Virus record (IMG/VR): IMGVR_UViG_3300019378_000003
Length of the DNA: 40,640 nucleotides
Origin: a virus
Taxonomy: Duplodnaviria > Heunggongvirae > Uroviricota > Caudoviricetes
Direction: 5' to 3' (one strand)
The notes beneath the pieces are model-generated. The model saw only the letters and a program-made list of their open reading frames with translations. It made no database searches and was not told the origin of the DNA. This document shows, piece after piece, positions 19,383 to 25,735 of this stretch (position 1 is its first letter; every line of letters begins with the position of its first letter). A program made the translations under genes and the position numbers.

Positions 19383-19606
19383 AAATCAAATCAACCTTTC
19401 TTTTTTCTTGTCGGTGTTGTTCTCTCAACCTTACATATATATTATATCAAAATTTTTGGTAATTTTCAAATCAGGTTGCTCAAAGGCAACTCAGCAAACT
19501 TGGTTAGGGCTACTTCAAAATCTTTTGTGTCTGTTACAAGCTCATAGAGATATTCATTGGTTTCACTGTTGTAGTGAGGTATCCAATGTTGATTCGATGA
19601 TGAGCC

Positions 19607-21520
19607 CTAGAAGGGCAGATCTCCGTAACGCATACGGATAACTGCTTCTTCTTCCTGCTCTAGAGCAGTTTTGATATCATTTGCGTAGATACCATACTGC
19701 TCTTCTTCAGTTTCCCTTGCGCCCCCATCATAGAAAGAACTGGAGCGAGCAATCGCTGCGACGCAACGATGCTGGTAGTTCTTAAACAGCTTGCGCTGGA
19801 TTTCTTCCTGTTCGGGGAAGAAGTAGGGACGAGATGGAGTGCCGGGTCGGTCAGTCAGCTGAATCCACTGCTCATAAGTCAGCATAGCGCCATTCAGCAG
19901 ATTGTCGATGTAGGAAGGATGGATGCGACCGCCGAAAGAACTGTAAAGGTTCATGTAGCGGGACACAATCAGTTCATCATCATAAGGATCCAGACCCATC
20001 TTGCGCAAGCAGTCATAGCAGATAGAACCTTCATTGGAAGTACAAATAGCCTGAGTAATATGGCGCAGGTTATTATTGTTGGTATAGTCTCCCCATCTGT
20101 GAACCGCACGACGGACATCTTCACGTTCGGGGTTATCCAGCAGGGGCTTCAGCAGGTATGCTTCCAGAAGGGGATTGCCAGGAATCTGCCAACGAGTTAC
20201 TTCATCTCGGCTGATATACTCCTGACACTCGTCACACCAAGTATAACGCTCATAGAAGCAATGCTCGCACAGCTTTTCGCCAGTTGCGGGGTCGACATAT
20301 TCCTCTTCGCGACCGGTGATATTCTCACCGCACTCATCGCAATAGTATTCGCCACGGCAAGCGCTGCACAGCAGAGAGTCTGCTACGCAATCACGTTCAT
20401 CGCAGTCATAGTCAACTTCTGCGCCGCACCACATACAGTTTGCAGGGCCAGAGAAATTGATATAACGGGGACCGTCATAGTCATAGCTCAGGCAGCAAAT
20501 CTGTTCGTCCTGAATATCATTATACATGAAATTGGTGTCGAACTCAAAGACGTGACACTGCATCTCGGTGGTGCTGTAGTCCGCCCAGCCCAGGTTTTCC
20601 TGTGCCAGACTTTTGACCCAATTTACCGCCTGAGTGGCCAGCACGTCATTATCATAAGGATACTGACGATTACACAGGATGACACCTTCGTGTACCAGAA
20701 TCCATGCGCGCCACTTCTTGGACGGCCATTCATAGTCTTTGCCATTGTAGCGCCAAGACATGTTGTTCTTGGTAGACTTCAGGTAGGCGCAGATAACCAT
20801 GGGACTATTCATCATTTCGACAGTACCGAAACGATAGCAGCCATATTCTTTCCAAGACATACAGCTGGACCAGTTGTTTGCGTTATCAGACGCAGTAGCA
20901 TAATCCAGAGGATGGATAGACAGGCACAGTTCACCAGTCAGACGCTTCTGGTTCAGTACCTGAGAATGTGCGACACGGAAGTTTTCAAAGTCCTCTTCCA
21001 TGTTGAAGATAGCACACACCTTGCCCAGAGCCTTCATCAGCTTCTGGCCGCGAGCGATATTGATGACGATTTCACCATCTTCGCTCGTCCACTTAATGTC
21101 GTCCGGCACGCGAGCATCAGTCAGAGTAGCGTCGTACGTCAGACGATACAGAGAATCTCTTACTCGACGGTCGGCATACCACTTCTTACCTTCGGGGGTA
21201 TTATCGTAATAAGCGAAGGTATTGTCAAGGGGAATCATGCGGTCAACACGACGCCAGTATTCCTCAATGAAAGCAGCATAATCGCTGGTCAGCTTATTCA
21301 TTTCAGAACGCATTTCGGCCCACGGACGGTCATAAGACACGGGAGTGCTGAGAATGAACTCTTCACCCATCAGCTTATACAGATTCTGCTTATTGGACTC
21401 CCAAAAAGCCAGAACCTTATCTGCAGGTGCAATATCACTTCGTTCAGGTTCGCCACCACAGTACAGTCGACGATAAGCGTCAAAAGCATCCTTATGAAGC
21501 AATTCTTTCACAATTATCAC
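19607..21520 (-). CDS. large conserved phage protein with Zn fingers (paralog of 15562..16917)
   Basis: LCLSIHPLDY..S.N..NWSSC...G.YR.G...KWR motif; ends DLPF-TAG (would extend 18 codons if read through). Confidence 0.85.
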   Translation of the reverse strand: MIIVKELLHKDAFDAYRRLYCGGEPERSDIAPADKVLAFWESNKQNLYKLMGEEFILSTPVSYDRPWAEMRSEMNKLTSDYAAFIEEYWRRVDRMIPLDNTFAYYDNTPEGKKWYADRRVRDSLYRLTYDATLTDARVPDDIKWTSEDGEIVINIARGQKLMKALGKVCAIFNMEEDFENFRVAHSQVLNQKRLTGELCLSIHPLDYATASDNANNWSSCMSWKEYGCYRFGTVEMMNSPMVICAYLKSTKNNMSWRYNGKDYEWPSKKWRAWILVHEGVILCNRQYPYDNDVLATQAVNWVKSLAQENLGWADYSTTEMQCHVFEFDTNFMYNDIQDEQICCLSYDYDGPRYINFSGPANCMWCGAEVDYDCDERDCVADSLLCSACRGEYYCDECGENITGREEEYVDPATGEKLCEHCFYERYTWCDECQEYISRDEVTRWQIPGNPLLEAYLLKPLLDNPEREDVRRAVHRWGDYTNNNNLRHITQAICTSNEGSICYDCLRKMGLDPYDDELIVSRYMNLYSSFGGRIHPSYIDNLLNGAMLTYEQWIQLTDRPGTPSRPYFFPEQEEIQRKLFKNYQHRCVAAIARSSSFYDGGARETEEEQYGIYANDIKTALEQEEEAVIRMRYGDLPF

Positions 21521-24271: not shown

Positions 24272-24448
24272 AGGGATTTCTCCTTTCTTCATTTTCTATA
24301 AATATTATATCATAAATTTATAGAAAAGTCAATTAGAAGATTCTCTTGGCGAGATTGGATTGGAATTCCTTTCTCAACCTTACATATATATTATATCAAA
24401 ATTTTTTGAAATTTTCAATTTAACTCTTCGCAGCGTTAGCTGCGAAGT

Positions 24449-24480
24449 TGACAACGATAAAAATTTTTGGTATAATATAT
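24449..24480 (+). promoter_or_regulatory. plus-strand promoter of the divergent island
   Basis: TTGACA-17-TATAAT with TG extension, back-to-back with the minus-strand promoter at 24376-24419. Confidence 0.8.
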
Positions 24481-24540
24481 ATAGAAAATGAGCGAAGAGT
24501 TCATTTATCAAATATTTTATTTATAGGAGCGAACTATATT

Positions 24541-24765
24541 ATGATGACTAATAAGATTATTTACACTCGTAAGATTGCTATGAAGTTGGTTGAGATGGGT
24601 CATGTGCCCGCAGGCACTATGCCGAACCCCAGCAAGCCCGAATTCCTTTGCTGGATTTTTGAGATTACTCCGAAGTTTGAAAAAGACCTTCAGACTGTAC
24701 TTGGCGAAGCGACTCCGCGCAGCCGTTCGGTAAGTGTTAAGGTAACGGACGCCAGCATTGAATAA
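24541..24765 (+). CDS. small putative DNA-binding protein (DUF5659-like)
   Basis: GGAG SD; IYTRKIAMKLVEMG.....PNP.KP....W.FE.T pattern. Confidence 0.6.
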   Translation: MMTNKIIYTRKIAMKLVEMGHVPAGTMPNPSKPEFLCWIFEITPKFEKDLQTVLGEATPRSRSVSVKVTDASIE

Positions 24766-24880
24766 CGTCGCACCCCGTTAGGTAAATTATCTACTATACT
24801 TCAGGTAAATGGGTAATAAGTGATAATTTTACTGATAGAGATTTGATATTCCCCTGATAGTCAGGGGGTGAGTAAGAAAG

Positions 24881-25498
24881 TTGGCTATTTAGAAAAGATT
24901 CCCCGCCGATACGGATCTAGAGAAGGAGATTACGTTTTTGAAAGATAAGAGTATTGATGCCGAGTTATATGCTTATCTACAATTCCTTTCTTATCCTATT
25001 GACGGGGCTACTGTCGTGAAAAAGAGAAATATGCCGTCGCAGGCTGAAATATGTTAGAAAATTGGAATTAAAAGTCCAAAGACATATAGGTCTCATTTGG
25101 CTATATTGATTGATAAGGGTTATGTTATTGAACGAGATGATGTTTATATATTGCCGGAAGTGGAAGATATTTATTTATTGCTGCCTTTGCCGACATTATA
25201 GTTTATCTTGGATACAGTAACGGACCCTGTTATCAAGATGTATATTTATTTAGGCTAGAGATGGAAGTATAAGCCTGGGTATATTTTCACTTAGGAAGAA
25301 GTAGCAGAGCATATAGGAATAAAGTTGGATGGTAATGCAGTCGCTCGGCGAATGATAAAGCATGGTTTGATAGCGCTATAGAACCATGGTTTGATTGCAT
25401 TTGAATAGTTCTTTGATGGAAAAAGTCCACGGTATCGGCTACTGGGGTGGTCAGATGCTTATGTGGCTAGGGAGGCCGTACCTGGGGTAGTGGTTTGA
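24881..25498 (+). CDS. 205 aa winged-helix, replication-initiator-like protein with 7 in-frame TAG
   Basis: Absent from the ORF track. GGGGGTG SD, TTG start. TAG at 24890, 25055, 25199, 25256, 25292, 25379 and 25406, no other stops until TGA. PSQAEICQKIGIKSPKTYRSHL and FTQEEVAEHIG look like HTH segments. Confidence 0.85.
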
Positions 25499-25499
25499 A

Positions 25500-25735
25500 A
25501 AAATGATTTCAAAACGGCGGACCCGGGAGGGTCCACCGAAATTTGATTTCAAAATCTCAATGGGTAATTTTATCTACATACTAGGTGATGTTAGGTAAAA
25601 TTTCTACCATACTTTAGGTAAAATTTCTACCAATATCTAAATAAACTAAGGGCTAACGAAATCCCTTCGGGCTTTCTTTATCCCTTACTAAATAAGGGGA
25701 AACGGTTCCCCTTCGGGGAACCGTTTCCCTAGGGT
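25500..25735. repeat. iteron-like repeats and hairpins (candidate replication origin)
   Basis: TAGGTAAAATTTCTACCA twice (cores 25594, 25617), variants at 25563 and 24781; TGATTTCAAAA twice around a GC hairpin; GGGAAACGGTTCCCC-TTCG hairpin. Confidence 0.6.

Follow-up and report, generated by a model that had tools for sequence, protein, structure and literature searches.

Recoded phages that read the amber codon TAG as glutamine (Gln) were described by Borges et al. as having a tRNA(CUA) of their own, TAG-free early genes and TAG-rich structural genes, and recoding was proposed to hold back late and lysis genes. Large gut phages of the same genome type as the phage considered here, namely phAss-1 and the proposed Phassvirus group (PMC10607447), were reported to possess about 30 tRNA genes, a tRNA-CUA, Pol III alpha and TAG codons in many structural genes. 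An initiator or origin is not discussed in the phAss-1 paper, and Borges et al., who stress lysis and structural genes, likewise single out no initiator. That replication initiation depends on amber suppression is known from lambda O amber mutants in suppressor hosts (PMC6022878), which are engineered and single-site. Here, a stretch of 40,640 nucleotides from a virus of the Caudoviricetes (IMG/VR record IMGVR_UViG_3300019378_000003), referred to in its full length as the window, was analysed with respect to the gene at 24881..25498 (+), termed the rep-like gene, which encodes a tandem winged-helix protein and is rich in in-frame TAG codons. Its dependence on TAG read-through is natural, multi-site and conserved across a family, and this one initiator-like gene, although located in a TAG-poor region, was found to top several genomes in TAG load.

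With regard to the architecture of the locus, the closest described systems are the iteron replicons (mini-F RepE, pPS10 RepA, R6K pi, RepFIB RepA), with which the window shares a protein of about 200-300 amino acids with two winged-helix domains, direct repeats of about 22 bp which flank the gene and are spaced at two helical turns, an AT-rich stretch and repeat copies near the promoter. The locus differs from these replicons as neither the window protein nor five relative genomes yielded a significant Rep3_N match, and as the module belongs to a phage of about 130-185 kb which itself encodes Pol III alpha, a helicase and a gyrase, and carries up to seven TAG codons. A phage winged-helix initiator and phased repeats next to an AT-rich region are likewise found for lambda O at ori-lambda and for SPP1/DnaD-like organisers, features which are here predicted from sequence, and the rep family shows weak PHROG and NCBIfam matches to O-like, DnaD-like and phage_rep_org_N models. 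In lambda, however, the repeats lie inside gene O, whereas those of the window phage flank the gene, and neither a Phage_rep_O or DnaB_2 Pfam match nor an adjacent P-like or loader gene was recognised.

The rep-like gene and its TAG codons

The rep-like gene comprises 205 sense codons between a TTG start and a TGA stop, whereby TAG was identified at codons 4, 59, 107, 126, 138, 167 and 176, the two remaining Gln codons being CAA (codon 34) and CAG (codon 54). Codon reading of 24881-25498 hence confirmed the original prediction that seven of the nine Gln codons are TAG, with the first at codon 4. No in-frame TAA or TGA interrupts the frame, which is open only if TAG is taken as a sense codon, and each of the other five frames contains 9-15 stops. 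A Shine-Dalgarno sequence (GGGGGTGA) is located 9 nt 5' of the TTG, and an in-frame TGA three codons 5' of the latter excludes a longer N-terminus of the protein. Low expression of the gene is suggested by its weak start codon, TTG, and by a hairpin that overlaps the Shine-Dalgarno sequence. The features relevant here are:

24852..24868 (+): hairpin CCCCTGA-TAG-TCAGGGG, the 3' arm of which overlaps the Shine-Dalgarno sequence; not conserved in relatives
26651..40204 (-): TAG-free block of about 23 small genes, in which in-frame TAG is absent both as sense codon and as stop, so that it is readable under either code

Genes of the window were called crudely, by greedy selection among open reading frames (ORFs) that were delimited by TAA or TGA and scored for codon usage, and the resulting counts are approximate. 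Outside the rep-like gene, about 50 called genes, some of them doubtful ORFs, contain 11 TAG versus 232 CAA/CAG codons, corresponding to about 4.5% of Gln. At this rate, the chance of obtaining at least seven TAG among nine Gln codons is P=1.2e-8, and at the late-gene rate of 35% it is 0.011. Several of the 11 TAG codons sit in doubtful ORFs or N-terminal extensions. The original prediction had further claimed that no gene between 27.5 and 40.3 kb requires TAG read-through, and in agreement with this the approximately 23 minus-strand genes at 26.6-40.2 kb were found to be TAG-free. A TAG-bearing call at 35226-35663 (+) was set aside as probably spurious, as it competes with a TAG-free ORF on the minus strand. 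Elsewhere in the window, the TAG at 19604-19606 within 19466-21520 (-) either ends a protein of 637 amino acids or is read through to add 46 codons; this tail is not conserved in relatives, and the gene may therefore be the sole user of a TAG stop.

Within a collection clustered at 90% identity, 162 relatives of the rep-like protein were identified at E<=1e-3, and a profile built on 48 of these retrieved 775 cluster representatives, 352 at E<=1e-10. Many of the 775 are fragments which start just past common TAG positions, as is expected when gene callers applying the standard code cut the gene. Contigs of two natural strains that diverged by a few percent differ from the window by 20 substitutions within the rep-like ORF, 19 of which are synonymous and 17 at third positions (P=2.8e-6); these range from codon 13 to codon 182, between and beyond the TAG codons, and none is located at a TAG. 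As a consequence, the whole frame is under protein-level selection and must be read through. In addition, the DNA of 19 non-redundant relatives was read with TAG marked apart from CAA/CAG, which revealed that the invariant Gln columns are mixed, the ratio of CAA/CAG to TAG being 12/8 in column 54, 15/5 in column 126 and 16/3 in column 34. The rep-like ORF was thus shown to be real, to have its TAG codons read as Gln and to be under purifying selection. Searching 50,697 phage records by tblastn, which left the rep-like protein unmatched, and by megablast with 20 kb yielded nothing useful; among viral contigs, a single-protein scan found no locus and an alignment-based scan found 17, the available material being DNA contigs of animal gut and faecal metagenomes.

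TAG load in the family and in complete genomes

Across the 19 non-redundant loci, the rep family uses 68 TAG versus 118 CAA/CAG codons (37%) and the neighbouring genes 111 versus 1973 (5.3%), corresponding to an odds ratio of 10 (P=1.5e-32). Strand-specific mutation bias was considered as the cause of this TAG richness and rejected, as operon partners on the same strand are devoid of TAG: none is present in the small upstream gene in the nine loci where it was called, nor in the first downstream genes of most loci.

For a comparison at genome scale, seven complete or near-complete relatives (G001, G002, G003, G005, G006, G007, G008) were used. The comparison of TAG density by gene class, which had been set as a check beforehand, revealed strongly unequal densities, with TAG making up about 0-5% of Gln in early and replisome genes versus 20-45% in late ones, and 57-78% in the rep gene of four genomes. 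In G001 (168,960 bp), an early block devoid of TAG precedes the rep gene, which is followed in turn by a TAG-poor block, a tRNA array including tRNA-CUA, the replisome block and the late block. The TAG share of Gln is 0-5% over the early and middle blocks, 0-7% in the replisome block (40-80 kb) and 24-45% in most of the late block (80-165 kb). With TAG at seven of its nine Gln codons, the rep homologue of G001 is the most TAG-dense gene of this genome. Ranked by TAG share of Gln, the position of the rep gene is as follows:

G001: 1 of 77 genes
G002: 1 of 71 genes
G007: 1 of 100 genes
G008: 2 of 86 genes
G003: 4 of 75 genes
G006: 40 of 82 genes, TAG at 1/9 Gln codons
G005: no TAG in the rep gene, 74 genes; the genome is almost unrecoded (0.8% of Gln)

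For the three genomes with rank 1 and the one with rank 2, binomial P values of 0.009, 0.0013, 0.014 and 0.125 were obtained, these genomes being related and the tests hence not fully independent. In six recoded genomes, seven replisome and nucleotide genes together contain 21 TAG versus 1001 CAA/CAG codons (2%), and Pol III alpha has no TAG versus 28-54 CAA/CAG in five of the six. That a TAG-laden initiator-like gene stands against a TAG-free replisome is a robust result. What is new is the family-wide quantification of TAG, the first place of the rep gene within several complete genomes, the contrast with the replisome genes and the purifying selection documented at strain level across the TAG codons. 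In G005 (L054-L060), the rep gene at 129439-130080 has no TAG and has kept three downstream repeats, so that this genome offers a natural control for the sequence in which recoding took place.

Throughout the family, TAG positions are spread over 38 alignment columns and are mostly lineage-specific, several of them being located where relatives have Glu, Lys or Asn. These data bear on the idea, to which a minor though real chance was assigned, that the TAG load is without regulatory role: a gene needed late or sparingly would escape selection against TAG and drift to the level of late genes. The family mean does equal the late-gene level of G001 (30-45%), and the counts, which range from 0 to 7, the positions, which mostly differ between lineages, and G006 with its single TAG are as drift would have them. 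Drift is opposed, on the other hand, by a rep gene that surpasses the late genes by taking the first rank in three complete genomes and the second in a fourth, and by a TAG share of 67% in the weakly recoded G002, where TAG makes up 10% genome-wide; those TAG codons which occupy Glu, Lys or Asn columns did not arise by synonymous changes of CAG. The TAG load reflects a tendency rather than a fixed design.

Protein fold and the candidate origin

The winged-helix assignment made by the original prediction was borne out by Pfam, with a match to LexA_DNA_bind (PF01726; 1.6e-8, 34.6 bits versus a cut-off of 23.7) at residues 47-86 and a further one to HTH_36, and by an AlphaFold2 model based on 48 sequences (mean predicted local distance difference test, pLDDT, 82.6), which revealed two such domains at about 20-98 and 103-190 joined by a short linker. 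A LexA repressor was rejected, as the winged helix alone matches, no S24 peptidase domain is present and TIGR00498 scored 25.3 bits versus a cut-off of 110.95. When the 48 members were scanned singly against PHROG, 21 matched a DnaD-like helicase loader and 10, 7 and 3 the replication-initiation families 428, 270 and 8102, respectively. More distant members matched phrog_3396, annotated as ScpB, in 40 of 59 cases (best E 3.8e-16) and in Pfam DUF6945, HTH_36 and Rep3_N, the latter weakly and in 5 of 59 (best 2e-4). No NCBIfam model was matched at its cut-off by the rep-like protein, and a weak match of the family was to phage_rep_org_N; sequence searches of the PDB returned generic winged-helix regulators and, weakly, TubR and AspA.

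Fold searches, including Foldseek against the PDB, identified tandem or single winged-helix proteins of many functions. Among Swiss-Prot folds, the whole-length matches with the highest template-modelling (TM) score were RepFIB RepA and RepA (TM 0.31-0.34, E about 5e-3 to 2e-2); RepE was matched with Z 6.4, and generic winged-helix proteins scored equally or better. The top matches within a viral fold library were unnamed relatives, the named ones including a replication initiator, protein O, a replisome organizer and several regulators. The fold of the rep-like protein is therefore settled, while its family is uncurated and its function undecided by sequence alone.

The iteron-like repeats which the original prediction had placed beside the gene proved to be real. 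The 22-nt unit TAGGTAAAATTTCTACCATACT occurs within the window at 24779, 25592 and 25615 only (0 expected by chance), and a degenerate copy is found at 25561. The features around the gene are:

24779..24800 (+): upstream copy of the 22-nt repeat, TAGGTAAATTATCTACTATACT, from a direct-repeat search
24822..24834 (-): inverted partial copy of the repeat core, GATAATTTTACTG, which overlaps a weak -10-like GATAAT
25561..25636 (+): three phased direct repeats, candidate iterons (25561-25582, degenerate; 25592-25613; 25615-25636)
25632..25649 (no strand): A+T-rich element AATATCTAAATAAACTAA, candidate unwinding element, directly 3' of the last repeat
25697..25729 (no strand): perfect 15-bp GC-rich hairpin after the A+T-rich element; a GC-rich hairpin is present here in every relative

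The downstream repeats begin 63 nt past the stop codon with a spacing of 31 and 23 nt. An inverted-repeat pair, 24822-24844 and 25552-25574, is 78% complementary, and the inverted partial copy at 24822-24834 is a possible operator half-site; an automated scan for inverted half-repeats upstream in the relatives was noisy, the repeat cores being A-rich. The stretch 25499-25554, which separates the stop codon from the iterons, contains a GC hairpin with a copy of ATGATTTCAAAA on either side; this motif is also found near the rep gene of G001 and is absent from more distant relatives.

All 19 non-redundant relatives possess two to four direct repeats with a period of 22-24 nt, starting at or just past the stop codon and followed by a CTAAATAA-type A+T-rich element and then a GC-rich hairpin, as well as one to six further copies between the terminator of the upstream gene and the ribosome-binding site. 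At the A+T-rich position, the relatives have two to three CTAAATAA units or ATATAATA repeats. The repeat sequence varies by lineage (GACAATTTTCCTAC in L001, GGGTAAAAAGTGCTAG in L013, GGGTAATTTCCTTGG in L020 and GGGAAAAAAATACTG in L021), whereas its position and phasing are constant. Even in two branches with about 25% identity, Tandem Repeats Finder identified 4.9 copies of a 24-nt unit and 4.7 copies of a 32-33-nt unit, respectively, which start from the stop codon and are followed by ATATAATA repeats. In both branches the rep gene is preceded by a small gene overlapping its start, which in L031 encodes a CopG-type ribbon-helix-helix protein (RHH_1 at cut-off) and in L034 has weak RelB and RepB-RCR_reg matches only. 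Within four whole relative records (41-169 kb), the repeat motif is confined to the rep locus with the exception of one stray copy, and it is hence not a promoter or regulon motif.

By analogy, the combination in which phased repeats that vary by lineage, an AT-rich element and promoter-proximal repeat copies accompany an initiator-like gene is seen as textbook anatomy of an iteron origin, and the rep-like protein is probably a replication initiator. The basis for this putative role is circumstantial: the protein has two winged helices in tandem, the arrangement of iterons, AT-rich element and hairpin is conserved, PHROG and fold searches gave weak matches to proteins of the Rep, DnaD and O types, and no other initiator family was detected in five relatives. 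The latter possess Pol III alpha, GyrA and GyrB, a RecJ-like protein and both a DnaB-like and an SF1 helicase (as annotated for G001, with homologues in the others), whereas DnaA, DnaB_2/DnaD, Phage_rep_O and Rep3_N (at E<=0.01) gave no match in these five genomes, leaving the rep-like protein as the sole initiator candidate seen beside a full replisome. As to the initiator function proposed by the original prediction, fold, repeat layout and weak family matches speak in its favour, while a significant family match, to Rep_3 in particular, was not obtained.

The best sequence matches are to the winged helices of regulators (LexA_DNA_bind at the E value given above; MarR, ArsR and Crp types), which raised the idea of a transcription factor that represses its own gene or activates the short plus-strand island. 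The repeats would then be operators, and the protein, being made after TAG suppression, would act as a middle or late regulator. The repeat copies between the upstream gene and the ribosome-binding site and the inverted partial copy over the -10-like hexamer would suit such a protein. Since the repeats occur at one locus per whole genome, however, there is no regulon, and the location of the main array past the stop codon, its phasing at two helical turns and the conserved AT-rich element behind it are origin-like and would be unusual for an operator. Considering further that replication proteins make up most of the annotated weak PHROG matches and that autoregulation belongs to the initiator model too, a transcription factor is regarded as unlikely.

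Still less probable, by a wide distance, is that the protein binds a centromere or organises DNA in the manner of TubR, AspA or ScpB, in which case the arrays would serve segregation or compaction. This idea draws on the phrog_3396 matches of the distant members, on TubR and AspA among the weak PDB sequence matches, on the winged-helix domains of ScpB, MukE and kleisin among the fold matches and on the fact that gene-flanking repeat arrays are typical of centromeres as well. The phrog_3396 matches, however, reflect the tandem winged-helix fold, and the Pfam families of ScpB and ScpA (PF04079 and PF02616) were unmatched in the five relative genomes. Moreover, no ParA, ParM or TubZ-like neighbour was recognised, the adjacent genes being without family matches, and the conserved AT-rich element past the array better suits an unwinding site.

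As an iteron-type initiator, the two-winged-helix protein would bind the phased direct repeats which flank its own gene, whereby the repeats 3' of the stop codon together with the AT-rich element that follows would form the origin and the upstream copies would allow for autoregulation. The rep-like protein may furthermore recruit the helicase.

Suppressor tRNA, timing and significance

According to ARAGORN, the minus strand carries 32 tRNAs at 5.6-13.3 kb, including the suppressor tRNA. The features that bear on its expression and on that of the rep-like gene are:

7790..7882 (-): suppressor tRNA of 93 nt (anticodon CUA), which has a long variable arm and encoded CCA and is scored as tRNA by Rfam
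7906..7934 (-): near-consensus promoter TTGACT-17-TATAAT with TG, 24 nt upstream of tRNA-CUA
24448..24476 (+): perfect sigma-70-type promoter TTGACA-17-TATAAT with TG, which would drive the plus-strand island
24541..24765 (+): small TAG-free gene of 74 amino acids which precedes the rep-like gene, conserved in at least nine relatives, with the motif NKIIYTRKIAMKLIEMGH..NPSKPEF..WIF

A hairpin directly follows tRNA-CUA, and similar promoters are scattered over the tRNA array. A tRNA of 93 nt with a long variable arm and encoded CCA is unusual for the Gln type, and one of the same length was found in G001 (L023 17355-17447). The promoter at 24448 would drive the small upstream gene and, in the window, probably the rep gene. 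With promoters of their own, the rep mRNA and the suppressor are both likely made by the host RNA polymerase from the start. A timer based on transcription distance, which would place the suppressor a long way 3' of an early promoter, was rejected in view of the near-consensus promoter that tRNA-CUA has for itself. No release-factor gene of the phage was found in five relatives.

According to the original prediction, the TAG codons may serve as a translational timer. What stood of this is that no full-length protein can be made under the standard code, given the TAG at codon 4 and six more, and that the neighbouring early-type block is TAG-free; a long delay, by contrast, was not supported, the suppressor having its own promoter. 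Any delay would come from the accumulation of the tRNA and its competition with release factor 1, whereby seven serial sites would produce a steep threshold rather than a long clock.

The sequence of events may be envisaged as follows. In a host with the standard code, UAG at codon 4 would lead to release of a tripeptide, whereas the TAG-free replisome genes of the relatives (Pol III alpha, DnaB-like helicase, gyrase) could be translated at once. Full-length Rep would need seven successive read-through events by tRNA(CUA), so that its yield would climb steeply with suppression efficiency, and origin firing would be tied to the phage having established a code of its own. The TAG load may have been selected as such a gate. 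As a whole, this explanation, an iteron-binding initiator whose synthesis is tied to the phage tRNA(CUA) and which couples origin firing to the phage code, is judged to be somewhat better than an even proposition. A more far-reaching version, put forward tentatively and considered doubtful, is that the TAG codons, by their number, form an ultrasensitive licence, the yield following read-through efficiency to the power of the TAG count: the origin would fire once the code is fully established, and selection would keep the initiator the most gated gene, an arrangement that would have arisen repeatedly in recoded lineages.

Several findings have to be set against the proposed coupling. At the protein level, there is no significant match to Pfam Rep_3 or to a curated initiator, the best ones being LexA_DNA_bind, HTH_36 and MarR-like models, and the fold matches would fit any tandem winged helix (Stn1, ScpB, RPC34, STK19). 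At the DNA level, the window has three downstream repeats only and a short A+T-rich element, neither an enrichment nor a cluster of DnaA boxes was found, and in six of seven relatives the minimum of the GC skew lies 4-20 kb from the gene, not at it. The TAG load is uneven among relatives, amounting to 0-1 in several of them and, in G006, staying below the late-gene level; with the family mean at that level, relaxed avoidance of TAG could explain much of it. The suppressor tRNA has a strong promoter of its own, so that no long delay is built in, and Borges et al. found the replication machinery to be standard-code in some clades and variably recoded in others. As independent evidence for the origin, GC skew was rejected altogether, as it tracks the coding strand in the window and in the seven relatives.

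A number of further observations concern the surroundings of the locus. The 74-residue upstream protein gave no Pfam or PHROG match, and ESM Atlas look-ups of two neighbouring proteins gave no lead. The promoter hub at 24280-24490 is divergent, with a 54-nt direct repeat (24281, 24367), inverted repeats of 34-38 nt and three near-consensus sigma-70-type promoters, two of them leftward and one rightward. In 8 of about 20 relatives (L001, L003, L005, L007, L008, L013, L017, L020), contigs end 0.4-5.4 kb from the rep gene on either side, which reflects either assembly breaks (repeats, hypervariable early genes) or a nearby genome end. A terminase small subunit with a pac site was ruled out by the fold, by the distance from the late genes and by the contig ends on both sides of the gene. 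Two weak Rfam tRNA matches are located at 30598-30739 (-), inside the TAG-free block and outside the tRNA array, and a tRNA-like stretch follows the origin-like region of L031 (3100-3300). In G007 (L070:1145-3313), the core of the DnaB-like helicase is split by an insert of about 370 amino acids, possibly an intein or homing element, and a separate ORF matches the C-terminal part.

Irrespective of its function, the rep-like protein belongs to a family, large and so far uncurated, in which tandem winged-helix proteins are accompanied by repeat arrays that co-vary with them. This family comprises at least 775 sequence clusters, and its genes are fragmented by standard-code gene callers. If the proposed coupling holds true, the gene that probably chooses the time and place of replication start would be the most TAG-dependent one of several genomes, in which the host code suffices to read the replisome genes, and the genetic code would license DNA replication by means of a compact module consisting of one gene of 205 codons, one tRNA and about 80 bp of repeats.

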